Assembly (NCBI GenBank): GCA_025453395.1
Contig: JALOQK010000002.1
Span: forward strand, 474,509-538,508
DNA from: Candidatus Omnitrophota bacterium
Lineage (GTDB): Bacteria; Omnitrophota; Gorgyraeia; Gygaellales; Profunditerraquicolaceae
Direction: 5' to 3'
DNA: 64,000 nucleotides
The notes beneath the pieces were generated by a model. It was not told the origin of the DNA. It worked only from the letters and a program-made list of their open reading frames with translations, and searched no databases. Made by a program: the position numbers and the translations under genes. This document shows, piece after piece, positions 36,168 to 64,000 of the stretch; the first letter of the stretch is position 1, and each line of letters begins with the position of its first letter.

Positions 36168-36170
36168 AAA

Positions 36171-37673
36171 TTAAATTCTTTTTCTTTTTAAGCCTAACTT
36201 CTTCTTGATATGCCAAAAATAATAACTTACGTATTGGAACCCGGATAAATCTCTTTTTGCAAACATAACAATAAAATCCACAACAAATAAAGTTAACCCT
36301 TTAGGCAAATACTTAAAATACTTTTGCAGATTATATTTGAGTATAAACTCTACTAGAGGCTTGGGCAAAAGAGGCATCGCCCTAAAAAGTATTTCATAAT
36401 TCTTGAACACTTTAAGCAAATTCCTGTTTTTTAAATATCCGTGCGAGCCGGCAATATAACAGGGAGATTCTCCTTTATTGATTGCCTCTATATCGCTTGA
36501 GGTGAGCATATCCAAACTCTTGGCAATATCTACCAAATCGGTATTGGGAAAATAGGTAGTCCAGAAACAGGTGATCCTTACCCTATTCCTAAAACCCGCG
36601 TAAGAACGCGCAGCCAATATCTGGTCCTCTTCTTTCTCGCCCGGTAGCCCAAACATATGATCGCAGGAATATTTTAACCCCACCTTGTCGCATATCTCAA
36701 AAGTCTGAATGATCTTGCTATTTTTCTCGTTCCTGAAAAGATAGTTCTTTTTAGTATCCTCGTTAAAAGTCTGCACGCCAAACTGCACCCGATGACAGCC
36801 TGCCTCCTTTAGAGAGCGCGCTGTATCCTCGTCTATGCATAGAGGATGAGAAATAGCCCTGAAGGGGACATTGATTTCTTTCTTGTAACGATGCATCAAT
36901 TCTTGGGTCCATTTCTTATCAACAGTCAAAACGCTATCGTAAAACCCCACTTCGCGGTAATTATAGCGCTTTTTCATTATGATCAATTCCTGCATTACAT
37001 TATCCACGCTCCTGCGGCGCTTATCCCTTGTATTATTGAATTTAGACATAAAATTCTGCGAGCAGTATGAGCAGGCATACGGACAACCCTTGGCAGTCAT
37101 TGTCATATACATGCGGCTTATATTAACCTCGTCCTCGAAAAGCTTTTTATCCAAAAAAGGCAGCTTTTCTAAATCAACAAGCGCTCTTACGGAATTACGG
37201 ATAATCCCTTTTTTGGTTTTAAACCAAATATTTTTGATGCCGTAATCAATATTCTTTTTTTCCATGCTGTTCAATAATTCCAACATCGCCTCTTCGCCTT
37301 CGCCAGTACAAACCATATCTACGCAAGGAAGCGAAATAATATAGTCTGGCTTGGCAGTCGGAAAGACCCCGCCAAAAATGACCGGAATATTCTTTATTTT
37401 CTTTACATCCTGGGCAACTGAAACTGCCCATCTGAAATTATCTGTAAAAACCGAAAAACCCAAGACATCAGGCTTAGAATCTATGATTTTCTTAACTAGG
37501 GCTTTTCTATCATCAAGTATCCTGTGCAGCCAAGGGATCTTAAAATAATTAACATCATCGAACAGCGCCGGATCAAAAACGAGGTTAACCGTATGACCAT
37601 GCCTTTTCACAAAGGCTGAAATTGCCTCTAAACTCAAACTCTCTGCCCCCATGAAAACAACCGTTAATCGCAT
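36171..37673 (-). CDS. Cobalamin-binding (class B) radical SAM enzyme
   Basis: MRLTVVFMGAESLSLEAISAFVKRHGHTVNLVFDP B12-binding-like N-terminus and TAKGCPYACSYCSQ. 500 aa. Confidence 0.75.
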   Translation of the reverse strand: MRLTVVFMGAESLSLEAISAFVKRHGHTVNLVFDPALFDDVNYFKIPWLHRILDDRKALVKKIIDSKPDVLGFSVFTDNFRWAVSVAQDVKKIKNIPVIFGGVFPTAKPDYIISLPCVDMVCTGEGEEAMLELLNSMEKKNIDYGIKNIWFKTKKGIIRNSVRALVDLEKLPFLDKKLFEDEVNISRMYMTMTAKGCPYACSYCSQNFMSKFNNTRDKRRRSVDNVMQELIIMKKRYNYREVGFYDSVLTVDKKWTQELMHRYKKEINVPFRAISHPLCIDEDTARSLKEAGCHRVQFGVQTFNEDTKKNYLFRNEKNSKIIQTFEICDKVGLKYSCDHMFGLPGEKEEDQILAARSYAGFRNRVRITCFWTTYFPNTDLVDIAKSLDMLTSSDIEAINKGESPCYIAGSHGYLKNRNLLKVFKNYEILFRAMPLLPKPLVEFILKYNLQKYFKYLPKGLTLFVVDFIVMFAKRDLSGFQYVSYYFWHIKKKLGLKRKRI

Positions 37674-47514: not shown

Positions 47515-50028
47515 ATGCTAGAAAAACACCCCCTATTGAAGAAGATACTTTTAACTAGCTTAATTTGCCTTCCGGTTATGGCGCTAGGCGCATATTTCCG
47601 CCTCTATCCTTTAATAAATAAAGGGCCCGCCTATGCCAAGAAAATGGCCACTGAAGTTGTCCATGCGCATTTCAAAGATAAGCTTAGGCTATACATCCAA
47701 AAGACCTACCCAAATCTGGACACTAAAGAAAAGGGCAAACTCTTAAGAATTAAATTTAAAGAATCTTTAATTGATGATGCCGCTGCCATTAGCGCCATGA
47801 TTGAAGAAGGCACAAGAGAGCTTCTTAAATCCGACAATATCCGCGTAAGCCCATTTCTCTTAGAAGCGGATTCCTACAATTTCTACGGCTTAACTGAAAA
47901 TATATACAAAACCGGAAAAATAAGCCCGCAAATAGAAAAGGGAAAATACTTTAATCCGCTGATGCTTGCTCCTTTTGGCAAATGGGAGCCGTTATCATTA
48001 CACCCGTTTCTCGGATACTACCTCTACAGAGTAATTAACCTCTTCGAAACGGGAGTAGAACTCATGGAAGCGATAAAATGGCTAGTAATCCTTATCTCTG
48101 TAATATCAGTTATTCCGTTTTTCCTTGTGTCTTTGCGCCTGAGAATATCTGCGTTAAATACCTTTGTCGGGCTTATTTTCTTTATATTGGGTCCGCTGTT
48201 TGTTCAAAGGACTGTCTGGGGATGGTATGACACAGATGTCTACAACATATTCTTCCCGACGCTGATATTGCTTTCTGTCTTCAGCATGTTTCTTGCGCTG
48301 GATAAGCCTAAGAAGCCGTACCTGATAGCTATGCTGACCTCTTTTCTTACTGCGGCTTATGAACTTTTTTGGCATGGCTGGGGTTTTATTTTTGTAATAA
48401 TGCTGGCGGCGCTTCCTTTTATTCTTCTGGCAGATTACAAATTTAACCACAAACAATATGCCAAAAAAATTATTTTATGCTACGCAACCTATCTTATTTC
48501 TACTTTTTTTTGTATAAGCATACTAATATCCCCGCACACATTCCTGTATACCTTTGAGGAAGGCCTTAAGATGCTCTCCAGTTTCTTAGGCGCAAAATTT
48601 GACCTCTGGCCGAATATTTTCTTGACGGTCGGAGAGACGCAAAGCATGTCTTTGGAAAAAGTTTCGTTTTTAGTAGGGGGAAACTACAACTATATATATT
48701 TCCCGATAGCGGGATGCTTGATGTTTCTTTTTTCTTCCTTTAGGCTAAGAAATATACGCTTGCTGTTTTCAAGTATCCTCTTAACCGTATTCTTACTGGG
48801 AACTCTATATCTGGCTTTAAAAGCAGTAAGGTTTTCCATCCTGCTGAGTGTGCCAGCGGCGCTATGTTTTACCCTTTTCTTAGAATATACATCCAAAGGC
48901 GTAATCTATTTGGTAAAAAACAAATTTAAAAAGCAACATTTTGTAAAACCCGCAAAATCAATTATGGCGGTTATTTTCTTGGCACTAACAATTATCCCGA
49001 TTTCTTCTGCCGATCTAATAGCTGGAAGAATAACGCCTATCTATAACCAAACATGGGATAACGCCATGCAGAAAATAAAAAAGCTCACCCCCGAAAACAG
49101 CATAATTAACACATGGTGGTGCCCGGGGCATTTTATTACGGCTGTTGCCAAAAGGCGCGTAGTGGCCGACGGAGCGTCCCAACAAGAGCCTCAAACCTAC
49201 TGGATCGCTAACGCGCTTCTTTCTAACAGTGAAGAGCTTTCTCTTGGAATATTGCGCATGCTTGATTTGAGCGGCAATAAGGCGTTGGAGTATTTAGAAT
49301 ATGAGCATGGGATGATTGTTTCTGATGCCACAAGCCTCTTAAAGAAGATACTGCCTCTTAACCAACAGGAAGCAGATGCGGTTCTTGCCTCTGAAGGATT
49401 TACACCTGAAGAAAAAACCACGATCTTAAGGATGACGCATCAAACACCTTTTGCGGCATATATAATGGTCTACACGGAAATGGTTGACTCATACGCAGCC
49501 CTTCCCTATATAGGTAATTGGGATTTTAAAAAAGCTGAATATTTAATACTTAACACACAAAGTAATAAAAATATCCGCATACCTTCGCGCGATTCCAAAG
49601 ATTTCTTAGATTTTATTTTCTCTCTATCAGGAGGATTACCTGCCTGCAGCCCCAGATACAATGAAGTTGCGCGAAAAGACAATAAGATAAGGTTTGAAAA
49701 TAACTTCGTACTCAATATTGACACAAAAGAAGGTTTTATAATCTCGCAAAAGGACGGGTCAATAATCCAACCCAAAAGCATATTCTATGCGGAAAATGGC
49801 CAGCTTCAAGAAAAGAAATACGCCTCCAGCACTCTCCCATATTCCGTGCTTTTAGCAGAAAACAATAACTCGTACGCGATATTTCTGCTTGATGAATCGG
49901 TAGCAAAGTCATTCCTTTTCAAGCTTTATTATCTTAAAGGCAAGACTCTAAAACACTTCACGCCTGTCTTTACCGAGGAAAGCCCCACTAAAGATATGGT
50001 AATAATGTTGTATAGAATAAACTGGTAG
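47515..50028 (+). CDS. GT-C fold membrane glycosyltransferase with STT3/AglB/PglB-like architecture (candidate oligosaccharyltransferase-like enzyme)
   Basis: 837 aa with about 13 TM helices and a ~350-aa C-terminal soluble domain. The first extracytoplasmic loop has EADSYNFYGL (D-x-Y-x-[FY]-Y, as in STT3 DPYFNYR, recalled from memory). About 50 aa after the last TM sits NTWWCPGHFI, positionally equivalent to WWDYG but with Cys-Pro replacing Asp-Tyr. Confidence 0.5.
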   Translation: MLEKHPLLKKILLTSLICLPVMALGAYFRLYPLINKGPAYAKKMATEVVHAHFKDKLRLYIQKTYPNLDTKEKGKLLRIKFKESLIDDAAAISAMIEEGTRELLKSDNIRVSPFLLEADSYNFYGLTENIYKTGKISPQIEKGKYFNPLMLAPFGKWEPLSLHPFLGYYLYRVINLFETGVELMEAIKWLVILISVISVIPFFLVSLRLRISALNTFVGLIFFILGPLFVQRTVWGWYDTDVYNIFFPTLILLSVFSMFLALDKPKKPYLIAMLTSFLTAAYELFWHGWGFIFVIMLAALPFILLADYKFNHKQYAKKIILCYATYLISTFFCISILISPHTFLYTFEEGLKMLSSFLGAKFDLWPNIFLTVGETQSMSLEKVSFLVGGNYNYIYFPIAGCLMFLFSSFRLRNIRLLFSSILLTVFLLGTLYLALKAVRFSILLSVPAALCFTLFLEYTSKGVIYLVKNKFKKQHFVKPAKSIMAVIFLALTIIPISSADLIAGRITPIYNQTWDNAMQKIKKLTPENSIINTWWCPGHFITAVAKRRVVADGASQQEPQTYWIANALLSNSEELSLGILRMLDLSGNKALEYLEYEHGMIVSDATSLLKKILPLNQQEADAVLASEGFTPEEKTTILRMTHQTPFAAYIMVYTEMVDSYAALPYIGNWDFKKAEYLILNTQSNKNIRIPSRDSKDFLDFIFSLSGGLPACSPRYNEVARKDNKIRFENNFVLNIDTKEGFIISQKDGSIIQPKSIFYAENGQLQEKKYASSTLPYSVLLAENNNSYAIFLLDESVAKSFLFKLYYLKGKTLKHFTPVFTEESPTKDMVIMLYRINW

Positions 50029-50032
50029 GAAA

Positions 50033-50587
50033 TTACGCGGCAACCACCGTCTTGGTAATAGACATATTGCACTTAACGGTGCCTTTTTCTTTATCCTTAG
50101 ATGCGATATTATAGCTTACAATATTGAAAAGGCTGTTTGAGGTTTCCAGACGGAAAATAAAATCGGCCAATTGCTCCATTGTGGCTTCGCATGACAAGCT
50201 TACAGAATATTTCTTCATCAGCTTCTCTTCTTTCAAATCCACCGGCTTAATCTCCCCTAAACTGACATTAGCCTTATTCGCTAATGTCTCTATTTCTTTT
50301 AATATAGAAGACAGCTCTTCTTCCTGTGATGTGGCATTAGATAAATAAACCGAGAATTCTTGGTCTTGTTTCTGGATTAAATCTTTCTGTGAAAGAATTT
50401 TCAGGTTTTTCTTTATGGAAAGCTCCTGCATGCGTATCTGCTCTTCCTGTGAACCTATTTTAGCTAAAATCGCGCTTAACACCAAACGGTCAAAAATAGC
50501 CATCACTAAAAATGCTACAGCTATATAAGTAATCAACTTTTCCTGTTTAGAAAATTTACTCCAATTAAATTCTAACTTACTGGCCAT
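50033..50587 (-). CDS. GspM/PilO-like bitopic inner-membrane pilus assembly protein
   Basis: 184 aa: short cytoplasmic N-terminus, one TM (LITYIAVAFLVMAIF), then a coiled-coil-rich periplasmic domain. It is the last gene of the gspE..gspL..gspM-like cluster. Confidence 0.45.
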   Translation of the reverse strand: MASKLEFNWSKFSKQEKLITYIAVAFLVMAIFDRLVLSAILAKIGSQEEQIRMQELSIKKNLKILSQKDLIQKQDQEFSVYLSNATSQEEELSSILKEIETLANKANVSLGEIKPVDLKEEKLMKKYSVSLSCEATMEQLADFIFRLETSNSLFNIVSYNIASKDKEKGTVKCNMSITKTVVAA

Positions 50588-50590
50588 ATT

Positions 50591-52021
50591 TTACCTCTGC
50601 TCTAATTTAGCGCTTATTTCAAAATCAGCCACATCTTTACCCGCCTCTTTACGGTTAGCGGTATTTTGGGCGGTAACATCTTTAAAATACTTTGAATTTT
50701 CTAAGGAAGTAACAAGCGCGAACACCTCCGACATGGCCTCAGCTGTCCCTTTAATGAATATAGTTGAATCCTGATCAATGCTTATATTCTTTAAATATAC
50801 GCTTGTGGGAATTAGCTCATAAAGCCATGATATAGAATCTAAAGCGTGATTTTTCTTTTTGAGGGCGTCTTTTATAACAATGATCTTGCTTAATTTACCT
50901 TCAAGATTAGCCACATCCGGAGAGGTGCTTTTAAGCTGTTCTTGAAGCCCGGAAAGATATACCCCGCGGTAATAAATCCTCACCAGAAGCATCGCGCAGA
51001 TGAAGATAACTATAAGCATTACCAAGAACCCGCTCTTGATGATTTCCTTGCTTCTTTCCTGAAAAGCCATCTTTAATTTTAAATCCAGCGGCCTTAAGTC
51101 TATCCTGGCATCCTCTGCCGAAATAACCAAAGCGATTAAAGATGACAAGGCCAGCTTTTTATCCTCCTGTATAACCTCGGCAGGGACAGAAACACTCTTA
51201 TAAAACAAAAGGTCCTTGGACGGCATAGTAAATGCCATTGAGGCGCTTGCCTTAACTAACTCCACCATATCAACGGGGCCTATGAAATTGATTTCATCTG
51301 GCATAACATCTATTTCTTCGGCGCGGTAAGCGTCAAAAGACTTCTTAAGCTCATCAGCAAACCTTAAGATACTTGCATTCTTATCAGCTAAGAAATCATT
51401 ATGCCCAACCGGGATATTTCTGACAAAAACACTCATACCTTTAGATATAATAATAAAATCAGAATTAACCTGAGATATTCTAACAACAACGCTGGGGCTG
51501 GCTTTTTTCTCTATCTTAAGCAGTTTTATGCAAGATAAGCCTATATTTTCCGCGGCGTATTGCACGCGGGCGACTTGGAAACCTGCTAAGTTGATAATTT
51601 CTATCTGCCTCTTAAGCTCTGCCTGCACGACTATCACAACCAAAACTTTAGTATAACTATTATGATATGTGCCGATATTGACATGATCAATGATAATTTC
51701 TTCTCTTGCGTAAGGGGTATATCTTCCGGATTGAAGATCAATTATCTCTTTTATTTCCTTATCGCTTGTGGAGGGCACTTCTATATTCTTAGTGATAACA
51801 GCGTGGGAATCAATGCTTAAAATAACTCTGAAATTGCTTGCCTTAAGCGCCTTGACATTGTCCTTAAGCAACTTCGCAATACCAATGGCATCACAAGATT
51901 TAATATCAAAAACTTTAATCCCTGTTATTTCATATTTAGCGCCTGCGCGCTTGCCGTAACATAAATTTACAGTATCCCCGCGGAAATTTACCGCAAGCAC
52001 ATTTCGTATTTTATCAGCCAT
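50591..52021 (-). CDS. GspL-like / PilM-PilN fusion-type assembly protein
   Basis: 476 aa: an actin-like cytoplasmic domain (about 300 aa), a single TM (IIKSGFLVMLIVIFICAMLLV), and a periplasmic C-terminal domain. The topology matches GspL, which is structurally a PilM+PilN fusion. Confidence 0.55.
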   Translation of the reverse strand: MADKIRNVLAVNFRGDTVNLCYGKRAGAKYEITGIKVFDIKSCDAIGIAKLLKDNVKALKASNFRVILSIDSHAVITKNIEVPSTSDKEIKEIIDLQSGRYTPYAREEIIIDHVNIGTYHNSYTKVLVVIVVQAELKRQIEIINLAGFQVARVQYAAENIGLSCIKLLKIEKKASPSVVVRISQVNSDFIIISKGMSVFVRNIPVGHNDFLADKNASILRFADELKKSFDAYRAEEIDVMPDEINFIGPVDMVELVKASASMAFTMPSKDLLFYKSVSVPAEVIQEDKKLALSSLIALVISAEDARIDLRPLDLKLKMAFQERSKEIIKSGFLVMLIVIFICAMLLVRIYYRGVYLSGLQEQLKSTSPDVANLEGKLSKIIVIKDALKKKNHALDSISWLYELIPTSVYLKNISIDQDSTIFIKGTAEAMSEVFALVTSLENSKYFKDVTAQNTANRKEAGKDVADFEISAKLEQR

Positions 52022-52023
52022 AA

Positions 52024-53052
52024 CTATGCCCCGTTCTTAATACTTTCTCGCCAATACTTTACTGACCCGGACAACACATCATAAACACAATCCACATCTA
52101 TTAATCTTTTGCCTGCCCCATAACCTGCTTTTGCGTGCAAATGAACACAGGAAGATTTATCCGTTAACAGGCCATTTAGGGCCTTTTGCAGCTGTTCAAT
52201 TTCAGACTGCATCAAAACCGAATCTTTATTTAAATCTTCAATATAATTTTTGATTTCTTCTTCTACAACATCATCTTCTGTCCCGCATATTTTATCCGCG
52301 CCCTTACGGAACATGCTGATCTTTTTCACAAGAACACTGTCTAAACCTAAAATCTCAAGGACCTTAAGGGAAGCTGAATTAATATTAACCCTGCCATTAC
52401 CATAAATAGTAACATATGATTTGATTTTATTAAAGTCTTCTTCTTGCATCCCGGGGATATCTTTTAACTCATCGATAAACTCAATATTAGAGTTCTTAAG
52501 CCACGCAGAAGACGCGAACCCATAAAAAACTTCTTCGGCAGCTGCATTACTGGCTAAATCATCATTATCTCTATAATCAATAATACGGTTACTTAAATCT
52601 TCGGCCTTAGCATCGCTTAAAGCGCAAACTTTAACAAAAAGATTCTTAATGGTCTCAAAAGAAGCTGTGTTCAAGTTAATTTTGCTTTCTTCATCAATAA
52701 CCCCGTAACAAACTTCATCCCCGCAAGAACTTCCAAGCTGCCCGTTATAATCCAGAGAAAGATTGATTCCGCCTAATTTTCTTTCCCCGAAGAATTCAGG
52801 GTTATTAGAAAGAACGCTTTTAAGCCCGTAGAACTCTTGCTTTACCCCCTGATTGGCCAGCTGCCATATCCCAAGATCAACCGCTGACATAGCTGCTAAA
52901 CGTAATTTGTCGCTATCCTCTATTCTCTTGACGAATAAAATCTTCTGGTTAACAGCCGCACCGATGAAAACCACAAATACCGTCAAGCATGTTACCACCC
53001 AAAGGCTTAAGAAAAGTATAGAGCCTTCTTTCTTTTTTCTTAATTGACGCAT
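52024..53052 (-). CDS. GspK-like large minor pseudopilin
   Basis: 342 aa. N-terminal MRQLRKKKEGSILFLSLWVVTCLTVFVV hydrophobic pseudopilin-type segment, then a large periplasmic domain; size and position typical of GspK. Confidence 0.55.
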   Translation of the reverse strand: MRQLRKKKEGSILFLSLWVVTCLTVFVVFIGAAVNQKILFVKRIEDSDKLRLAAMSAVDLGIWQLANQGVKQEFYGLKSVLSNNPEFFGERKLGGINLSLDYNGQLGSSCGDEVCYGVIDEESKINLNTASFETIKNLFVKVCALSDAKAEDLSNRIIDYRDNDDLASNAAAEEVFYGFASSAWLKNSNIEFIDELKDIPGMQEEDFNKIKSYVTIYGNGRVNINSASLKVLEILGLDSVLVKKISMFRKGADKICGTEDDVVEEEIKNYIEDLNKDSVLMQSEIEQLQKALNGLLTDKSSCVHLHAKAGYGAGKRLIDVDCVYDVLSGSVKYWRESIKNGA

Positions 53053-53621
53053 AGATTAATTATCCTTGATAAATCTACGGCCCTATTATTCTTTATTATC
53101 CTTATATTAACCCTAACAGCGCTTGGCAAAGGATTGTCGCTTTGCGAATCCCATATTTCTGTAAACTGCTTTTTCTTTGGGTAATAATAACTAAAAGACA
53201 GGCTTTCTACTTTCTCCACGATAGGGCTGGGGCTGACCGCATATTTACTCACTTTGACCGCTTTCCAACTGTTAAATGTGCGTAAAATATCTTTATTATC
53301 TTGGTCAAAATAATACCTAACGCGCCCCAAACCTAAATAGCTTGTTTTATCCTGATGGACATAATCTACCGTGGTAAATGATAATTCTTTTTGGCTGCCA
53401 TAACCTAAAATACGCGAGAAAACGCATAAATTATGCAGGTCATTGGTTATTTTATCAAAAAATACTGCCACCTGCACATCCCCGGAGCCGTCTTTTATTC
53501 TCTGCCAAATTTTTACTCCAGAAGAAAAACTCTGATACACCAGAACCCCTAATACCGCCAACAAAACAACAACTATATTTAATTCAATAAAACTAAACCC
53601 AGGGTGAGTTTTAATCTTCAA
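53040..53621 (-). CDS. Minor pseudopilin (GspJ-like) with a prepilin-type N-terminal cleavage/methylation motif
   Basis: MKIKTHPG|FSFIELNIVVVLLAVLGVL: a G-F-(S/T)-(L/F)-I-E class III signal-peptide motif. Confidence 0.6.
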   Translation of the reverse strand: MKIKTHPGFSFIELNIVVVLLAVLGVLVYQSFSSGVKIWQRIKDGSGDVQVAVFFDKITNDLHNLCVFSRILGYGSQKELSFTTVDYVHQDKTSYLGLGRVRYYFDQDNKDILRTFNSWKAVKVSKYAVSPSPIVEKVESLSFSYYYPKKKQFTEIWDSQSDNPLPSAVRVNIRIIKNNRAVDLSRIINLCVN

Positions 53622-54018
53622 AATAAAAACCTCGCGAGAAATCTATTTTTTTAGCCTCGTTTACTATCGTCAAAACCAACCCTGCATGATACATATTCTT
53701 CTTTGGTGGTTTTTCTTGCGTGACAGGCGAGATATTTGTTTTCCAGGAATAACTGACACCGGATTCTTGGCCTAGAAATGATGCCAACCCGGAGGCAAAA
53801 ATCTTGGCCTTCCCAGGAGAATTCTTCATTTCCCAAACAAGATTATTAGCCACACAGGAAACCGCTATTCTTTTTAGCAAATACTGGTCTATGCTTAAAG
53901 ACCTTAACAAAGACTGGAAAATAACCACTATCGCCAAAGACAAAATAGCGCTTGTAAGCATAATCTCCACCAAGGTAAATCCCGCTATTGTTTTGCTACT
54001 GCCAATTGGAGATATCAT
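53611..54018 (-). CDS. Minor pseudopilin (GspH/GspI-like) with a prepilin-type N-terminal motif
   Basis: Start moved to the internal ATG at 54018 (MISPIGSSKTIAG|FTLVEIMLTSAIL). The track ORF extends to 54078, deep into the gspG-like gene. Confidence 0.55.
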   Translation of the reverse strand: MISPIGSSKTIAGFTLVEIMLTSAILSLAIVVIFQSLLRSLSIDQYLLKRIAVSCVANNLVWEMKNSPGKAKIFASGLASFLGQESGVSYSWKTNISPVTQEKPPKKNMYHAGLVLTIVNEAKKIDFSRGFYFED

Positions 54019-54412
54019 CCTTGCTTTCCTTGCCGTCCTTTCCCAAACTCCAGAGATCATAATCTGGGCGATGCTCACCAGGAGATTTATACAAATATTC
54101 TTTACCCCATGGATCAGCTGGCCTTCTTTCTAAATATGGGCCATTCCAGTTTTCCGGCACAGGGGAAATTGTCGGCTTTATCATCAACGCAATTAAATTC
54201 TGCTCTGTGGTCGGGAAGCTGCCGTTATCTAATTCATAAAGCTTCAAGGCTGTAGCAAGATTAACTGTGATATCGGCCTTACAAGCAGCGGTTTTGGCTT
54301 GTTCGGACCGGCCGACAAGCCGCGGTAAGACCATAGCGGATAATGAACTTATAATTATCACCACCAGCAATATTTCTATTAAAGTAAATCCTTCTTGCTT
54401 TTTTTTATTCAT
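53996..54412 (-). CDS. gspG: Major pseudopilin / type IV pilin, GspG-like
   Basis: MNKKKQEG|FTLIEILLVVIIISSL prepilin motif and a GspG-like body (YELDNGSFPTTEQ...NWNGPYL...PADPWGKEYLYKSPG, matching the DPWGNPY motif). Confidence 0.8.
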   Translation of the reverse strand: MNKKKQEGFTLIEILLVVIIISSLSAMVLPRLVGRSEQAKTAACKADITVNLATALKLYELDNGSFPTTEQNLIALMIKPTISPVPENWNGPYLERRPADPWGKEYLYKSPGEHRPDYDLWSLGKDGKESKDDISNWQ

Positions 54413-54424
54413 AGGGTAATAGGG

Positions 54425-55630
54425 TTAATTTACAAATAAATTAAGCTGCAATATCGGCAAAAGCATGGCAATTATAACATAACTTAACACTATGCCCACG
54501 ATAAGTATCGTAACCGGCTCAAGGTACGAAGTAATGACTTTAAGGGCATCATCGGTATCTTCCTGAAAATAGCGCGCGATTTCCGCGAACATCTCATCAA
54601 GCCTGCCGGATTCCTCTCCGACGCTAACCAAATTCCCAAAGAATTTAGGCAGGATATTTGATTTCTTTAAATCCACCCCCCAAGCGCCACCCGATCTTAT
54701 CCTTTCAGATGCCGAAGAAATTTCTTTCTTTATGGCTTCATTGTCCATAACAGGTATAGCTAAATCTACGGCCTTTAAAATATTAATTCCGCTTTTAAGT
54801 GAAAGTTCCAAAGAGGCGCTAAAACGCGCCAACTCTGATTTCACAATGAAACCATTATATAAAGGAATTGCTAAAAGCACTTTGCTTAATAGGATTTTAT
54901 TGCGCTTGGCTATATTTCTTAGCACGAAAACTATTAAAATACACGCCAACAAGAACCAAATAAAATAAGACTTTAACAACTGGCTTGCCCAAAGGAGACT
55001 ACTGGTTACCCAGGGAAGCTGTTGCTCTAAATTAACATACATAGAGCTTATTTTGGGGACAACAAACACAAGCATAAAAACTACCGTAGCAAGTCCTACC
55101 AGCAACATAAAACAAGGATATATTAAGGCAAATTTCACTTTTTTGCGCAGTTCATGCTCCTTTATAAGGTACCCGCCTACTCTATCCAAAGCTAAAGATA
55201 AATTGCCGGTATTTTCTCCGGATCTTATAATAGCTATGTATAACCCGGGAAAGACCAGAGGATATTTAGCCAAACAAATCGATAAGGCCGCGCCGGATCT
55301 TACGTCAGCAATAATCTCATCTATAATCTGGGACAGGCCGTTACTTGCGGTTTGTTCTTCTATTATGGCAAGGGCCTTTAATATGGGCACACCGGTTTTT
55401 ACCAAACGCGAAAGCTGGCCTGTAAAGATAATAACCTGTTTTAAGGAAACTTTGGAATGAGCCTGGCTATAGCTTGTGCGCTGCAGATCTCCAGAAACAA
55501 GCTCTAACTTAACAGGCACCAGGCCCTGGCGGTTAAGTAAATCCACAGCGGCATCTCTGTTAGAGGCCTCGAGTATCCCTTCTTTTAGCTCTGTGGGGCT
55601 TTTTTTAGCTGTATATTTAAAATTAGGCAT
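54425..55630 (-). CDS. gspF: Type II secretion / type IV pilus platform protein (GspF/PilC family)
   Basis: 401 aa with two repeated cytoplasmic domains separated by TM helices. Characteristic ...GENTGNLS.. and ...GEESGRLDEM.. repeat motifs of GspF/PilC. Confidence 0.85.
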   Translation of the reverse strand: MPNFKYTAKKSPTELKEGILEASNRDAAVDLLNRQGLVPVKLELVSGDLQRTSYSQAHSKVSLKQVIIFTGQLSRLVKTGVPILKALAIIEEQTASNGLSQIIDEIIADVRSGAALSICLAKYPLVFPGLYIAIIRSGENTGNLSLALDRVGGYLIKEHELRKKVKFALIYPCFMLLVGLATVVFMLVFVVPKISSMYVNLEQQLPWVTSSLLWASQLLKSYFIWFLLACILIVFVLRNIAKRNKILLSKVLLAIPLYNGFIVKSELARFSASLELSLKSGINILKAVDLAIPVMDNEAIKKEISSASERIRSGGAWGVDLKKSNILPKFFGNLVSVGEESGRLDEMFAEIARYFQEDTDDALKVITSYLEPVTILIVGIVLSYVIIAMLLPILQLNLFVN

Positions 55631-55631
55631 A

Positions 55632-57791
55632 TTAAGTCCTTATTTTGCTGCGCTCAATTATAAGCCTGTTTAACTTAGCCCTGTCCGCTCCCGATAGATC
55701 CAGAAAACATATCGCGATATGGTAACTTATGCCATCTTCAACTTCTTCTACCCTGACAACCCTGCTTAAGCAATTTATATTTATTTCCGAAGAGATATTA
55801 ATGCTGATGTCTAAGATCGCGCCTAAAACAAGCGGCTCATGATAACTAAAAAGCACGCCCCCGCCACCAACGTTCTTAGTCATCGTGTTTATATACGGCA
55901 TATCCTGGGTAGGAAATTTATGCTCTTTGGAATAAAATTTCCAGGAAAACGGGATATTAATCGGCAAGCGCGGAAAAAGCCGGCGGGTGTGCGAATCATC
56001 GTATTGTAACGAATCCGTTTCTATAGTAGCCAACGGCGCGGGCTGAACAAACGATTCTTCAGGCTCATCAGCATAATCCTGCTCGGTAACTTTAATAATT
56101 TCTTCAGCGGTAGTAACTCCGGTAATAACCTTTTCCCAACCGTCTTTCCTTAAGGTGCGCATCCCTTCTGAAATAGCCAAAGACCTTAACATCTTTGAAG
56201 ACGGTTTATTAAGAATCGCATCTTTCATGGTAGAATCCATAAAAAGTATTTCAAATATGCCTGTGCGGCCGTGGAAACCTGTAAAGTTGCAAGATTCACA
56301 GCCTGACCCCGTGTAAAGCTTGATTTCCTCCGGGCAGACAATGCCTAATTCTTTGGATATTTGAAGTTTTAGCTTTTGTTTATTAGAGGTATCCTCTTTC
56401 TTGCAAAATGGGCAGATAACCCTGACCAAGCGCTGGGCGATAAAAGCGTCAACGCTTGAAGAAATCAGAAATGCTGGCACTCCTATATCTATCAATCTTG
56501 TAATACCGCTTGGCGCGTCATTGGTATGCAGAGTTGAGAACACTAAATGTCCGGTCAAAGCAGAACGCATGGCGATTTCCGCGGTCTCTAAATCCCTTAC
56601 CTCTCCGATCATGATCACGTCCGGATCATGCCTTAAAATAGACCTCAAGCCCTTCGCGAAAGTAAGCCCTATTTCAGAAGAAACTTGGATTTGCACTAAC
56701 CCGGGTATTTCATATTCCACCGGATCCTCTATGGTGACAATCTTCTTTTCTTTTTTATCAATGCGCGATAGACAGGTATAAAGAGTGGTAGTCTTACCGC
56801 TTCCGGTAGGGCCTGTGACAAAAATAATGCCATGCGGCTTGCTTATTAAATTCTCAAATGTCTTTATGTCAGAGGATGAAAGCCCAAGCTTGCCTAAATC
56901 AAAGGTCATTTGGGAAGGCAGTATGCGGATAACCAGGCTTTCGCCATATACGGTAGGGATAAATGATACCCTTAGGTCTAATACCTCATTTTGCACCTTG
57001 ACCACCGCTCTTCCGTCTTGAGGAAGTCGGCGCTCCACAATATTAAGGTTGGCCATAATCTTAATCCTGGAAAGCACTGGTTTCAGGTATGGTTTTATCT
57101 GGCTGGAAAGGCTTGTATCGTACAGAACCCCATCTATGCGATAACGCACGTTAAACTCTCCCCGGCAAGGCTCAATATGAATATCAGTCGCGCGTTTTTT
57201 ATAGGCCTCAAGTATAATTTGATTAACCAGCCTTACTATTGATTTATCATCCGCCAATTTATCTATATCGGAAATCTCTTCCTTGGAAGCTGTATCCAGT
57301 TTAATATTCTCGCTCATGGATTCATCGGAAGTAATCGCTCCCGCAACATCAGCCCCTAAGCCATAAAGCGCGTTAATTTGCTCCAACACATCAGACTCAT
57401 TAGCCATAACCATTTTTATTTCATAACCAAAATGCAGCCTTAATTCATCCTGTGTTTTTATATCAAGCGGATAAATCAATGCTATAGTAAGAAGCCTGCC
57501 CTCTATGCTTACCGGGACAAAACGATAGTGCCACGCGAATTTATAAGGAATGACTTCCGACAAGCGTTTATCTATCTTGATTGAATTAATCTCTAAATAA
57601 GGCAGGCCAAGATCAGATGACAGATTCTTTATGATACTTGTTTCATTGACTAAATTCTCTTTCACCAAAAGGCCAAGAACCGATTTATCAGATGACGCGT
57701 TATTCCTGATAAGCCTTGATAAAACATCCTCTGGAACTATGGCATTCTTGCGCACATAAGATAAGATTATTTCATCAAATTTTGAGTTCAT
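55632..57791 (-). CDS. gspE: GspE/PilB-family assembly ATPase with N-terminal GSPII_E_N domain and an additional C-terminal PilZ-like domain
   Basis: Walker A GPTGSGKTTT, Asp/His boxes and the tetracysteine CPFC...CESC zinc motif. After the ATPase core (to about aa 570) a ~130-aa C-terminal extension carries RRLFPR (RxxxR) and, 34 aa later, TKNVGGGGVLF (a D/NxSxGG-like motif): the two-part PilZ c-di-GMP-binding signature. Confidence 0.85.
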   Translation of the reverse strand: MNSKFDEIILSYVRKNAIVPEDVLSRLIRNNASSDKSVLGLLVKENLVNETSIIKNLSSDLGLPYLEINSIKIDKRLSEVIPYKFAWHYRFVPVSIEGRLLTIALIYPLDIKTQDELRLHFGYEIKMVMANESDVLEQINALYGLGADVAGAITSDESMSENIKLDTASKEEISDIDKLADDKSIVRLVNQIILEAYKKRATDIHIEPCRGEFNVRYRIDGVLYDTSLSSQIKPYLKPVLSRIKIMANLNIVERRLPQDGRAVVKVQNEVLDLRVSFIPTVYGESLVIRILPSQMTFDLGKLGLSSSDIKTFENLISKPHGIIFVTGPTGSGKTTTLYTCLSRIDKKEKKIVTIEDPVEYEIPGLVQIQVSSEIGLTFAKGLRSILRHDPDVIMIGEVRDLETAEIAMRSALTGHLVFSTLHTNDAPSGITRLIDIGVPAFLISSSVDAFIAQRLVRVICPFCKKEDTSNKQKLKLQISKELGIVCPEEIKLYTGSGCESCNFTGFHGRTGIFEILFMDSTMKDAILNKPSSKMLRSLAISEGMRTLRKDGWEKVITGVTTAEEIIKVTEQDYADEPEESFVQPAPLATIETDSLQYDDSHTRRLFPRLPINIPFSWKFYSKEHKFPTQDMPYINTMTKNVGGGGVLFSYHEPLVLGAILDISINISSEININCLSRVVRVEEVEDGISYHIAICFLDLSGADRAKLNRLIIERSKIRT

Positions 57792-57804: not shown

Positions 57805-60178
<2,374 letters not shown>

Positions 60179-60190
60179 GCGCGCCCTAAG

Positions 60191-60934
60191 TTAAACCCTC
60201 TCCTCGATATGCTGTTTTTCTGCTAAAACTATCTCATTAATTTTAGAGGCAAGGCTGCCATCCAATGTCAAAGTGCCGAACCTCAAGATAGCCCCTGCCA
60301 ATACCGAATTATCTATTGTCTCATTCAACGAGAGACCCTTTTTAAGCTTAACGGATAAAAGCTCGCCTATTTTAGAGCGTTGTTTATCATCCAAGGGCAT
60401 AGCGCAAACAACATCCACGGAATTGACCCCTGAATCAATAGTCCCAAAATTAGCGTTCTCCAGCTCTTTTAAGAATTCATCCCACAGGATATTATTGATT
60501 TGGGTTACCGCGGTTTTGCTTAAGATGCGCGAAATCATCGAGCCGCAACGCTCCACCATTTTAGTTTCTGTCTCTTTGCGAATATCATCATGTATCTTAT
60601 TTATTGTCTTTTGGGCCTTAGTAATGATATCTTCACTTTCAACCTTGGCACGCTTAAAAGCGCTTTCCTTGATCTCATAGGCCTCTTGAGTGGCCTTATC
60701 TTTTATTTCACTGGCTACATTTTCCGCCTCTTGCTTTTTCCTATTATATTCGTCCTCTATTTCTTTAATCCTCTGCGCTATTTCATCCTTCTTCTTTTTG
60801 ACATCTTCATAAGAAGTCTCAAGCCTATTTACGGAACTTTCCGTATCCTTGGTCAAGACTAATTTTAGAAAAAATATAACTACGCCAAAAATAATGGTCT
60901 GAACAACAATAAGTTTAATTAGAAAATCCCCCAT
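60191..60934 (-). CDS. atpF: F-type ATP synthase b subunit carrying a delta (OSCP)-like C-terminal domain
   Basis: N-terminal TM (LIKLIVVQTIIFGVVIFFLKLVL) and a long charged coiled coil typical of b. The last ~110 aa (...IDNSVLAGAILRFGTLTLDGSLASKINEI) match the delta C-terminal IDPSLIGG..V..GD.ViDgSv pattern. No separate delta gene is present. Confidence 0.6.
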   Translation of the reverse strand: MGDFLIKLIVVQTIIFGVVIFFLKLVLTKDTESSVNRLETSYEDVKKKKDEIAQRIKEIEDEYNRKKQEAENVASEIKDKATQEAYEIKESAFKRAKVESEDIITKAQKTINKIHDDIRKETETKMVERCGSMISRILSKTAVTQINNILWDEFLKELENANFGTIDSGVNSVDVVCAMPLDDKQRSKIGELLSVKLKKGLSLNETIDNSVLAGAILRFGTLTLDGSLASKINEIVLAEKQHIEERV

Positions 60935-60943
60935 AAATTCTCC

Positions 60944-61159
60944 TTATTTAGCTCCAAAAAGCTGAAAAATAACTAACAGTCCTAAAATAGCCAACACCTC
61001 TACAAAAACAAGTATGATTATTGTACCCATTAATATTTTTGATGCCGACGATGGATTTCTCCCCAGCGCCTTTATGGTAGAATAACCTATAGCGGCAATA
61101 ACCGCTGAAGGCCCTAAAATTACAACCCCGACTATTAAAAGCACAATAACTGTATTCAT
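60944..61159 (-). CDS. atpE: F-type ATP synthase c subunit (proteolipid)
   Basis: 71 aa, two hydrophobic helices with a loop (GRNPSSASK) and the conserved carboxylate in helix 2 (FVEVLAILGL). Confidence 0.75.
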   Translation of the reverse strand: MNTVIVLLIVGVVILGPSAVIAAIGYSTIKALGRNPSSASKILMGTIIILVFVEVLAILGLLVIFQLFGAK

Positions 61160-61405
61160 CTAATCTCCCACCTCAACTATGGCCACACAATCATTTCTTA
61201 AGAATTTAATTATCCCTCTGTTAATGCTTATCGCCTCTTGCCAATCTATGATAATATCCCCTTTGCCCAAAAGACTCATGATCGGGTAATGGCAAGATAA
61301 AAGCTCAAACTCTCCTTTTTCTCCTGGGACAAAAACAGTAGAAACATCTCCTTTATAGAGAATAGAATCGATATCCAGCACCGTAAAGAAAAATTTACCG
61401 ATCAT
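61160..61405 (-). CDS. atpC: F-type ATP synthase epsilon subunit, beta-sandwich domain only (C-terminal helical hairpin absent)
   Basis: 81 aa. FTVLDIDSILYKGDVSTVFVPGEKGEFELLSCHYPIMSLLGKGDIII parallels the epsilon N-terminal pattern (L.VV..E...F.G.V..V.V.G.EGE.GIL.GH.PL...L..G...I). Confidence 0.6.
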   Translation of the reverse strand: MIGKFFFTVLDIDSILYKGDVSTVFVPGEKGEFELLSCHYPIMSLLGKGDIIIDWQEAISINRGIIKFLRNDCVAIVEVGD

Positions 61406-61406
61406 C

Positions 61407-62924
61407 CTATTTATTCGCTGAAATGGTAATTTCCTGAACAGCAGCTTCTTGTTCCTGCCCTTCAGCAGCTCTTTTTTCCATAAGCACTTTCAGGTAATCA
61501 TTGATCAGAAAAATCAACTCTTGCTCAATGCCTTCATCAAAATCCCTTTTAGCGCGCAGCTTTTGTAAAACTTCAGGATTCCGCTTAAACGCAAAATCAT
61601 ATATTTCTTCTTTAAATATAGCGATCTCTCCCATTTCCAGATCTTCCAATAAGCCTTTATTATGAGCTAAGAACATAAGCACTTCCCCTTCCATGGGTAC
61701 CGGCTTATCGCGGTCTTGTTTTAAAAGCTCATACAAAATCTTGCCCTTACCCAATTCCCTCTCTGTTTCTTCGCTCTGACCGGAAGCCTTAAGCCGTGAC
61801 AAACGCTGCAATTCTTCAAAACGCACATATTCAAGACGCAGGGTCTTACTTACCTTTTTTATCGCCGGCCATTGCACTTTGCTTCCGATACGGGAAACTG
61901 ATAAACCTATACCGACCGCTGGCTTAAAGGCATCATTAAAAAGCTGCGCGCTTAAATAAAGCTGTCCATCGGTCATAGATACTAAATTTGATGGCACATA
62001 ACCTGTTAAATCGCCTTCCAGAAGTTCAACAATAGGCAAAAATGTCATTGAGCCTCCGCCTTTTTCTTTATTTAATTTAGCCGCGCGCTCAATCATTCTG
62101 GAATGCAAATAAAATACATCTCCCGGATAAGATTCTCTTCCGGGGGGCCTGCCTAAAATAAGCGATATTTCTCGATATGCCCAGGCATGCTTGGTAAAAT
62201 CATCAAAGATTACCAGCACATCCCTGCCTTGATTCATAAAAAGCTCGCCTATGGAACTAGCCACGTATGGCGCCAGATACATCTGCCCCGGAGGCTGCCC
62301 CGCCATAGCAGCGACAATGATCCCGTAATCAAACATATCGAATTTCTTAAACAACTCCACAACCCTGCTCATGGCTGCTTTAGATTTACCAATTGAACAG
62401 TATATACAAATAACGTTCTTACCTTTTTGATTAATAATAATGTCAGTACAGAGAGTCGTCTTGCCGGTCATTTTATCTCCTAATATAAGCTCTCTCTGTC
62501 CTTTGCCAATGGGGATTATGGTATCTATTATTTTTATCCCCGTCTCAAGCGTTTCTTTGATAATTTCTCTCTCCAGGATAGACGGAGCTTCAGGAAAAAT
62601 AGGAAGATAAACTTCTGGAGGGATAACTCCCAAGCCATCCAAAGGCTCACCTAAAACATTAACCATGCGCCCCAGATATTTACTGCTTACGGGGACATTG
62701 AACGGCTCCAAGGTCATGGTTGCGGTATCTCCGGTTTTTATCGGCTCCTGCTCTTTAACAATAAGAACTTGCGTTTCATCCTCAGAAAAACCAATAATCA
62801 TGCCCAGCGTACCATAACCAAATCTAATCAACTGCCCATTAATACAATGTTCAAGGCCTTTAATGGTCACAATACAACCGCGGACCGCTTTAACCAAACC
62901 AAACTCTTTATACTGTAGGCTCAT
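61407..62924 (-). CDS. atpA: F-type ATP synthase F1 alpha subunit
   Basis: 505 aa. Walker A GDKMTGKTTLCTDIIINQKGKNVICIYCSIGKSKAAMSRV matches alpha GDRQTGKTA...IINQKG...CIYVAIGQKAS (recalled from memory). Confidence 0.9.
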   Translation of the reverse strand: MSLQYKEFGLVKAVRGCIVTIKGLEHCINGQLIRFGYGTLGMIIGFSEDETQVLIVKEQEPIKTGDTATMTLEPFNVPVSSKYLGRMVNVLGEPLDGLGVIPPEVYLPIFPEAPSILEREIIKETLETGIKIIDTIIPIGKGQRELILGDKMTGKTTLCTDIIINQKGKNVICIYCSIGKSKAAMSRVVELFKKFDMFDYGIIVAAMAGQPPGQMYLAPYVASSIGELFMNQGRDVLVIFDDFTKHAWAYREISLILGRPPGRESYPGDVFYLHSRMIERAAKLNKEKGGGSMTFLPIVELLEGDLTGYVPSNLVSMTDGQLYLSAQLFNDAFKPAVGIGLSVSRIGSKVQWPAIKKVSKTLRLEYVRFEELQRLSRLKASGQSEETERELGKGKILYELLKQDRDKPVPMEGEVLMFLAHNKGLLEDLEMGEIAIFKEEIYDFAFKRNPEVLQKLRAKRDFDEGIEQELIFLINDYLKVLMEKRAAEGQEQEAAVQEITISANK

Positions 62925-62975: not shown

Positions 62976-64000
62976 CTATTTAACTTCAGACTGCTGCTTA
63001 GGCTTGGTGATTTTATTATACTTAGCAGAACCTGTATCCGCCTTAAGCCTTCTATACCAAAAAAGCCCCACGAAGATGCTAAATATAATCAGGAATATAA
63101 TAACAATTAAAAAAACCTGCCAGACTTCTGCTTTGGGAATATTCTCCTTTTTCTTTATATCGGCAATCTTAAGCTGAGCCTGAGGGTCTTGCTCTTTTAA
63201 GACGCTAAAAAATTCCTGCGCGCGCACAATATCAGCAATTAACCCCTTCATCTTATCCAAGCTCTGCTTGATTTTCTTTTCGCGCTCGAGGTTGTCATTA
63301 TAAAGCGATATCTTATCCCTGATACCAGAAGCTGTTTTCTGAGTTTCTAGTATCTCCTGCGAGCTCTTAGTTATATCAGAAAGAAGCATATCCCCTAATT
63401 TATTATATTTGGTTTCTTTTAATATGCTCTTGAAATCATCCGCCTCGCGCGCATATTTATCCATTAATTCCGGGGAAAAACTCCACATATCCTTTATTTC
63501 CAATTCATATTTCTTGCGTTCTCCGGCTTTCAGCTTTTCTTTTTTACTTAAATAATACTGCCCTACCTTGTTATCATAGCCGATATCAAATCCGGGATTA
63601 GAAACCAGATATTCTGGCTGCACGCCTTTAGGCAGGTAACTTGTTACTGTTGTTTCCGCCTCTTCCTCTGCTGTATTAGTAGCCTCTACAACATAACGCA
63701 CGGTGCGCGCGTTTTCCATTCCAGAAGACTTAATTGCCAAATAATCCAAAGATAAAATATCATTCTCCAGTTGTGACAAGCGTTCCTTATTCGCGCGATA
63801 CAAACCGATCTTGCGCTCAATATCACCAGCGGCTTCGGTTTGCGACTTTGATATATCATCCAGCTTAAGATTAATATTATCGGCCAACATCTTAGCGGTA
63901 TCGTAACTTGATGAATTCTTCATCGTATTTAACTTCTCGCCAAGTTTATTTCTTAGGCTATCCACTTTGTCGCTAGGAATATCCCACTTGTCCTGTATGA
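62976..64000 (-). CDS. Coiled-coil protein with a C-terminal transmembrane anchor; the 5' end lies beyond the window
   Basis: The track start at 63965 is a GTG and the frame stays open to the window edge. The protein is mostly charged/helical (predicted coiled coil) with a single TM near the C-terminus (VWQVFLIVIIFLIIFSIFVGLFWY) and a short basic tail. Confidence 0.4.
   Translation of the reverse strand, partial: IQDKWDIPSDKVDSLRNKLGEKLNTMKNSSSYDTAKMLADNINLKLDDISKSQTEAAGDIERKIGLYRANKERLSQLENDILSLDYLAIKSSGMENARTVRYVVEATNTAEEEAETTVTSYLPKGVQPEYLVSNPGFDIGYDNKVGQYYLSKKEKLKAGERKKYELEIKDMWSFSPELMDKYAREADDFKSILKETKYNKLGDMLLSDITKSSQEILETQKTASGIRDKISLYNDNLEREKKIKQSLDKMKGLIADIVRAQEFFSVLKEQDPQAQLKIADIKKKENIPKAEVWQVFLIVIIFLIIFSIFVGLFWYRRLKADTGSAKYNKITKPKQQSEVK

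Follow-up and report, generated by a model that had tools for sequence, protein, structure and literature searches.

The stretch of DNA analysed here, hereafter the window, comprises 64,000 nucleotides of contig JALOQK010000002.1 from a Candidatus Omnitrophota bacterium (assembly GCA_025453395.1). On its minus strand, an uninterrupted open reading frame (ORF) with an ATG start spans positions 55632-57791 and encodes a 719-amino-acid ATPase of the GspE/PilB family that carries a PilZ domain at its C terminus, the ORF and its Pfam domains giving the layout MshEN-T2SSE-PilZ. F-type ATP synthase genes lie upstream of this gene, and genes of a machine related to type II secretion systems (T2SS) lie downstream. 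Judged from the sequence and predicted structure, the fused PilZ domain probably lets c-di-GMP (cyclic dimeric guanosine monophosphate) switch this machine directly.

To our knowledge, control of T2SS and type IV pilus motors by c-di-GMP is known only through N-terminal MshEN domains or through separate adaptor proteins. By the first route, c-di-GMP acts on such ATPases via MshEN (PMC4624772, PMC5013675). By the second, a separate PilZ protein binds PilB’s N-terminal domain, and FimX raises ATPase activity about 3-fold (PMC8389850).

Results

The C-terminal tail of the ATPase, amino acids 603-719 (55635-55985, minus strand), is a genuine canonical PilZ domain, as established by Pfam, by the fold of an AlphaFold2 model compared with Foldseek, and by motif conservation. 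An earlier note on this DNA, which had left the strand of the ORF unstated, had claimed a PilZ-like domain at this end of the protein and had named in advance the test by which to judge it, namely a Pfam hit and a PilZ beta-barrel, both of which were found. The PilZ profile PF07238 (gathering score 22.5 bits) matches amino acids 603-712 with 40.4 bits (E=4e-10) when the whole protein is searched and with 44 bits (E=3e-11) when the last 153 amino acids are scanned alone, covering profile positions 2-101 of 102. A model of amino acids 586-719 built with 32 ortholog tails (predicted local distance difference test, pLDDT, 80.3; predicted template modelling score, pTM, 0.71) has a six-stranded beta-barrel followed by a C-terminal alpha-helix (model residues 116-133), the canonical PilZ layout according to Galperin & Chou (bioRxiv 10.1101/814665). 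Compared with the PDB using Foldseek, this model returned PilZ domains as matches 1-48, most of them solved with c-di-GMP; the best was MotI/DgrA (5vx6, E=3e-6, probability 1.0), and others included a PilZ domain of Pseudomonas aeruginosa (4xrn), Alg44 (4rt0), YcgR (5y6g), BcsA (4p00), MrkH, MapZ, and PlzA. Given these Pfam and Foldseek E values, the match to PilZ lies far beyond chance.

The two halves of the PilZ signature are RRLFPR at amino acids 603-608 (55968-55985), in which RxxxR is R604-LFP-R608 with R603 preceding it, and NVGGGG at amino acids 640-645 (55857-55874). The earlier note had described this signature as bipartite with a spacing of 34 residues; RRLFPR is indeed present, and the spacing is 31 residues between the motifs or 37 from start to start. 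Its second half had been given as (D/N)xSxxG, a reading which the window protein does not bear out, as the pattern here is NxGxxG with the motif Ser replaced by Gly. The claim fares better among the orthologs, in which both motifs are conserved, a lack of such conservation having been named by the note as a refutation: xRxxxR occurs in 119 of 120 (RR in 54, KR in 54), [D/N]xSxxG in 112/120, the NxGxxG variant in 5/120, and the offset between motifs is 38 residues in 99 of the 120. In an alignment of 115 sequences that are only ~50% identical overall, R604 and G645 are invariant, R608, S642, A643, and G644 are conserved in at least 90%, and nowhere is the tail more conserved than in the two motifs, the linker before them being without any conservation. 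C674 and C695 in the barrel (in CLARVVR and CFLD), which lie outside the usual PilZ signature, are likewise conserved in at least 90%. A non-canonical PilZ domain of the Xanthomonas type was considered and rejected, since the tail has the RxxxR loop as well as the complete barrel.

Preceding the tail is a T2SSE ATPase core at amino acids 179-566 (56094-57257, minus strand; Pfam PF00437, 434.6 bits). All elements of the complete GspE core that had been claimed from the sequence, including the N-terminal domain, could be located in the ORF and by Pfam: Walker A, GPTGSGKT, is at amino acid 327 (56790-56813), with the Asp box following at 354, DPDVIMIGEVRD as Walker B at 389, the His box at 413, and the zinc motif CPFC/CESC at 460/498 (56289-56414). 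In the 115-sequence alignment, these four boxes and the cysteines C460, C463, C498, and C501 are invariant. The extension beyond the core exists as described in the earlier note, at a size of 153 amino acids past T2SSE (a linker of 36 plus a PilZ domain of 117) in place of the ~130 residues given there.

The N-terminal domain, the core, and the PilZ tail are separated by two linkers. Linker 1 (amino acids 149-177; 57261-57347, minus strand) has pLDDT <50 in the full-length model and is variable in the alignment. Linker 2 (amino acids 567-602; 55986-56093, minus strand), which joins PilZ to the ATPase, is acidic and rich in Ser and Pro, is unconserved, and has pLDDT <50 for amino acids 577-602. 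At ~36 amino acids in the window protein, it compares with a median of 27 in orthologs, where E, S, A, and P are overrepresented in it (88 of 120 could be parsed, with the end point of the ATPase set slightly later). The full-length AlphaFold monomer model, based on 115 sequences, has a pTM of 0.45; the N-terminal domain (amino acids 1-148, pLDDT 80-96) and the PilZ domain (603-719) are confident, and pLDDT falls below 50 only in the linkers and in parts of the core. As modelled, the protein is an assembly of three modules on two flexible tethers.

The fusion is a regular feature of the lineage. The 120 best homologs, drawn from NCBI, JGI, ENA, and Logan assemblies, are 49-58% identical to the window protein over the full length, measure 700-775 amino acids, and are all annotated with PF07238, PF05157, and PF00437; all those with a name belong to Omnitrophota, and an identical protein (P0001) comes from a 542-kb contig of an NCBI ‘Candidatus Omnitrophica’ metagenome-assembled genome (MAG). 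The alternative that a GspE gene and a small PilZ gene have been joined falsely, through an overlooked stop codon, a frameshift, or an assembly error, might be entertained on the grounds that stand-alone PilZ proteins of ~120 amino acids close to the tail do exist (P0131, 38% identity). With an unbroken reading frame and the same architecture and length in 120 of 120 best homologs from independent assemblies, we regard such an artefact as so improbable as to be negligible, and rejected it on the strength of the 120 independent full-length orthologs.

When the window tail alone was used as the query against GTDB genomes, no related loci were found; with four close tails as queries, 11 loci were found, eight of which are named Omnitrophota and three of which are third-party annotation (TPA) MAGs of ‘uncultured Planctomycetales’ with identical synteny, a name that we take to be imprecise. 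A search of all-protein representatives, which carry no taxonomy, returned, as its top matches, chiefly pieces of the fusion and small PilZ proteins. Among the latter are nine proteins of ~160 amino acids (P0193, P0196, P0210, P0158, P0172, P0215, P0225, P0227, and P0141) in which an N-terminal piece of ~45 amino acids precedes a PilZ domain close to the fusion tail; this piece resembles GspF residues 1-43 (against the window GspF, 37% identical with a pairwise E of 0.009), a possible further link between PilZ and the machinery. Two larger proteins also stood out: in P0233 (939 amino acids), three PilZ domains stand ahead of an Hsp70-like domain, and P0198 (3205 amino acids) has ten PilZ-like stretches.

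The earlier note had called the architecture unusual, which holds insofar as no description of it was found in the literature and does not hold within the lineage, where all 120 best homologs carry it. The ATPase-PilZ fusion is unmentioned in two surveys of PilZ domains (bioRxiv 10.1101/814665, 10.1101/2020.02.11.943704), in a 2024 review of PilB cofactors (PMC11656802), in a 2025 paper on ComFB (PMC12448109), and in two Omnitrophota genomics preprints, and full-text searches were likewise empty. Automated Pfam annotation already marks the three domains of the fusion. As far as checked, therefore, the parts and their logic appear to be known, and it is the covalent wiring, conserved across the phylum, that appears to be new.

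The N-terminal domain (amino acids 1-148; 57348-57791, minus strand) is MshEN-like, with the fold kept and the c-di-GMP motif degenerate, as seen from Pfam, structural matching, and NF053729. Pfam MshEN (PF05157, formerly T2SSE_N) matches amino acids 61-145 with 66.9 bits, and the closest solved relative is that of Geobacter PilB (5zfr, E=2e-14), N-terminal domains of PilB and MshE proteins also being matched. C-di-GMP-sensing ATPases of the GspE/PilB family use two 24-residue motifs within the first ~55 residues of MshEN (PMC5013675), and NCBIfam NF053729 describes this tandem motif as RLGxx(L/V/I)(L/V/I)xxG(L/V/I)(L/V/I)xxxxLxxxLxxQ with a cutoff of 38 bits. The window protein gave no match to NF053729 at E<=0.01, and 10 of 24 fusion orthologs gave weak ones at the same threshold (best E=6e-8).

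Column counts were made on an alignment that combined the N-termini of 120 fusions with those 12 MshEN proteins of the same loci that stand alone. Position 1 of motif 1 is never R or K in the fusions, and G3 and Q24 are each found in 0/120; in motif 2, G3 is found in 0/120 and Q24 in 3/120, while the hydrophobic scaffold of the motifs is retained. The stand-alone proteins have R or K in motif 1 in 10/12, its G and Q in 12/12 each, and in motif 2 the G in 12/12 and the Q in 11/11. On these counts, the usual c-di-GMP site in the ATPase’s own MshEN domain is lost in essentially all 120 orthologs, and this degeneracy strengthens the idea that PilZ has taken over sensing.

Gene order was compared across 13 distinct loci with upstream DNA (the window, L001, L003, L004, L006-L013, and L015). 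In 11 of them (L001, L003, L006-L013, L015), a stand-alone MshEN gene of 150-190 amino acids is placed between atpD and the ATPase-PilZ gene; L012 has it in two tandem copies, and in L001 and L013 it overlaps the start codon of the ATPase. Two of these proteins score well above the NF053729 cutoff (L001:9480-10004, 62.9 bits; L003:9284-9760, 57.7 bits; E about 1e-16) and match the model far more strongly than the best fusion ortholog. The gene is absent at the locus in the window, by regular-expression and tblastn searches, and in its closest relative, L004.

In a different view of the tail, PilZ is a ligand-independent adaptor, as in Xanthomonas and Pseudomonas, where it binds PilB’s N-terminal domain and not c-di-GMP, and the c-di-GMP sensor is another protein, for example the stand-alone MshEN. 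The motif Ser is missing in the window protein, the upstream MshEN proteins have an intact motif (58-63 bits) and are encoded right beside the ATPase gene in 11/13 loci, in some cases with an overlap at its start codon, and Xanthomonas PilZ binds an MshEN-like N-terminal domain of PilB (PMC8389850). Non-binding PilZ proteins, however, are without RxxxR and their barrel is rearranged (bioRxiv 10.1101/814665), whereas here both motifs top the conservation of the tail and the fold agrees with that of canonical PilZ structures solved with ligand; moreover, the window clade keeps its PilZ tail without any stand-alone MshEN gene at the locus. We accordingly judge a pure adaptor role to be quite improbable.

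The genes downstream of the ATPase-PilZ gene run in the same orientation and are separated by gaps of at most about a dozen bases or overlap. A GspF-like platform protein (54425-55630; Pfam T2SSF 174.9 bits; NCBIfam GspF 312 bits, below the cutoff of 424), whose gene starts one base past the ATPase stop codon, is followed by the major pseudopilin GspG (53996-54412; NCBIfam TIGR01710 144.5 bits, cutoff 88.85; Pfam T2SSG 110 bits). Next come minor pseudopilins resembling GspI (53611-54078; Pfam N_methyl, weak NCBIfam GspI), GspJ (53040-53621; Pfam T2SSJ, weak NCBIfam GspJ), and GspK (52024-53052; Pfam T2SSK_1st, weak NCBIfam GspK), then a GspL-like PilM-PilN fusion (50591-52021; Pfam PilM_2 and PilN) and a PilO/GspM-like protein (50033-50587; Pfam PilO/T2SSM_b; NCBIfam GspM_XpsM E=1.3e-8), all on the minus strand. 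GspF follows the ATPase-PilZ gene in 13/13 loci, and other T2SS-like genes come next wherever the contig reaches. Pfam detected no secretin GspD, GspC, prepilin peptidase GspO, or PilT among 59 of the 60 window ORFs of at least 150 amino acids, and in relatives none lies within 10 kb; other parts of the genome may hold GspD, GspC, and GspO.

By its gene content, the machine is a T2SS-like system of the type IV filament family, a call that rests on a GspG above its cutoff, on the GspF/I/J/K/M-like genes, and on the PilM-PilN fusion. The phrase ‘pilus extension’ used in the earlier note is for this reason not the best description. The locus may nonetheless be read as encoding a surface type IV pilus with a PilB-type extension motor, used for attachment to a host or prey and controlled by c-di-GMP at the step of extension. 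The ATPase scores 565.2 bits on the NCBIfam equivalog for GspE (TIGR02533, cutoff 630.25) and nearly as much, 553 bits, on that for PilB (TIGR02538, cutoff 675.65), and because both cutoffs are missed its assignment to either subfamily is ambiguous. The PilB-type reading also draws on the closest solved N-terminal domains being those of PilB proteins, on the PilM, PilN, and PilO Pfam matches in the operon, on the failure to find GspC and a secretin either in the window or up to 10 kb away in relatives, and on reports that Omnitrophota are host-dependent and have giant adhesin-like genes with secretion or pilus loci close by (bioRxiv 10.1101/2023.11.21.568195, 10.64898/2026.06.07.730766). Set against this are a major subunit that passes the GspG equivalog cutoff, the presence of GspI/J/K- and XpsM-like genes, and a locus with no PilT-like retraction ATPase. 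We hold a surface pilus to be the less plausible machine, an unlikely option that nevertheless deserves to be kept in mind.

Two further genes were noted in and around this operon. An 837-amino-acid oligosaccharyltransferase of the STT3/PglB type (47515-50028, plus strand) lies convergently, directly after the T2SS-like operon, and does so in L004 as well; it may serve glycosylation of pseudopilins or other envelope proteins. Between gspF and gspG, L001 (13427-14266) and L003 (13464-14318) have a gene of ~280 amino acids with a weak Peptidase_MA_2 match, and a gap of ~1 kb at the same place in L006, L009, L012, and L013 implies the same gene there; the window clade is without it.

On the other side of the ATPase-PilZ gene, the window has ATP synthase genes in the order alpha, epsilon, c, b/delta, gamma, beta (57805-62924, minus strand; identified by Pfam and, for the c subunit, as an ORF). 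The last of these, atpD (beta), ends 13 nucleotides before the ATPase start codon in the same orientation; no convincing terminator was found at this junction, and promoter and terminator scans of the window did not rise above shuffled controls. ATP synthase genes are directly upstream of the ATPase-PilZ gene in 13/13 loci, in the order alpha-epsilon-c-b/delta-gamma-beta in the window and L004 and epsilon-c-delta-alpha-gamma-beta elsewhere. No gene for the ‘a’ subunit was seen in the cluster.

Discussion

We consider it likely, though well short of certain, that the protein described here is a hexameric, T2SS-like assembly ATPase with a tethered PilZ domain by which c-di-GMP regulates the machine. 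In the mechanism we propose, the PilZ domain would bind c-di-GMP, the RRxxxR form of its first motif being one that is linked to binding of an intercalated c-di-GMP dimer. The RxxxR loop, which starts exactly at the end of the linker, would wrap the nucleotide upon binding, and the barrel would be repositioned against either the ATPase domain, which faces the cytosol, or the N-terminal domain, which is the docking site of PilZ in Xanthomonas (PMC8389850). In consequence, the activity of the hexamer, or its docking to the GspL-like protein or the GspF platform, would be altered. As to the sign of the response, we tentatively suggest that high c-di-GMP would most likely activate pseudopilus assembly and secretion, because of the analogy with MshE, the Xanthomonas PilB-PilZ-FimX system, BcsA, and Alg44.

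A number of observations weigh against this proposal. The Ser-to-Gly replacement in NVGGGG may lower the affinity of the window protein for c-di-GMP, and the ATPase falls below the equivalog cutoffs of both GspE and PilB. The full-length monomer model contains no confident contact of PilZ with the rest of the protein, so that the route of transmission and the sign of regulation are guesses. No secretin or prepilin peptidase was found in the 64-kb window, nor did Rfam detect in it a c-di-GMP riboswitch or any other RNA family. Regular-expression and tblastn searches of the window turned up no credible GGDEF, EAL, or HD-GYP genes, which makes c-di-GMP metabolism in this genome an assumption.

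Among the closest known counterparts are the ATPases of the MshE/PA14_29490 type (PMC4624772, PMC5013675), which belong to the same ATPase family, have the same N-terminal MshEN fold, and likewise (as predicted here) place c-di-GMP in direct control of a T2SS or pilus assembly motor. Unlike these, the fusion has lost the Arg, Gly, and Gln of the 2 x 24-residue motif and bears a different receptor fold, PilZ, at its other end. Xanthomonas citri offers a second parallel in its PilB-PilZ-FimX system (PMC8389850), where a module of the PilZ fold associates physically with an ATPase of the PilB/GspE type and connects it to c-di-GMP, a connection that is predicted here, and where the N-terminal domain of the ATPase does not itself bind the nucleotide, as motif loss suggests for the fusion. 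In that system, PilZ is a separate, degenerate, rearranged, and non-binding protein and the EAL domain of FimX senses c-di-GMP, whereas the present PilZ is covalently fused, canonical, and has kept its binding motifs.

As in the cellulose synthase BcsA and in Alg44, whose C-terminal or otherwise fused PilZ domains gate an enzyme in cis and match the tail model, a canonical PilZ domain resides in the same polypeptide as the machine it would regulate; the output differs in being a hexameric secretion ATPase in place of a glycosyltransferase or co-polymerase, and in the fusion, whose linker is long and disordered, nothing equivalent to a gating loop was identified. YcgR and MotI (DgrA), which serve as brakes or clutches, also bring a PilZ module to a molecular motor, and MotI is the best structural match of the tail. 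These stand-alone proteins work on the stator or rotor of the flagellum and have a PilZN domain in addition, in contrast to the single PilZ domain fused here to the motor that it presumably controls.

A more elaborate scenario, which we think rather unlikely in its entirety, is that the c-di-GMP input of this motor has been rebuilt in Omnitrophota. The MshEN site would have been disabled and replaced by a PilZ domain in cis and, in most lineages, by a stand-alone, translationally coupled MshEN protein that possibly pairs with the degenerate N-terminal domain; the whole would form one transcription unit with the ATP synthase genes, downstream of a gene for a large or giant surface protein, and would serve as a gated machine directed at host or prey in an episymbiotic phylum.

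If true, a PilZ domain fused to the motor throughout a phylum would represent a third and simpler wiring beside MshEN and the separate adaptors. The fusion would also offer a compact, single-protein system in which to follow the transmission of a signal from PilZ to a hexameric ATPase, and it leads to the prediction that c-di-GMP controls secretion or attachment in host-dependent Omnitrophota, beside their giant surface-protein genes.

Other features of the window

Ahead of the ATP synthase genes, relatives have a large or giant gene (L016:3-5361, L001:1-4109, L003:1-3348, L004:1-4711). Its product has 7609 amino acids in L001, at least 2612 in L003, and at least 1352 in L016, the window organism’s own contig. 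At the corresponding end of the window (62976-64000), the ORF at 62976-63965 (minus strand) is the C-terminal part of a 432-amino-acid protein that has no Pfam match and is homologous to the C-terminal region of the giant proteins.

Most of the remaining window is taken up by a glycan-biosynthesis cluster of ~47 kb on a single strand (232-47383, minus strand). It encodes ten radical S-adenosylmethionine (SAM) enzymes, four of which are B12-binding paralogs arranged in tandem at 31730-37673, together with many GT2 glycosyltransferases, methyltransferases, NeuB, heptose-pathway-like genes, thiamine pyrophosphate (TPP) enzymes, and a DegT aminotransferase. For two large ORFs of this cluster, at 10789-12000 and 12007-13779, Pfam gave no match.

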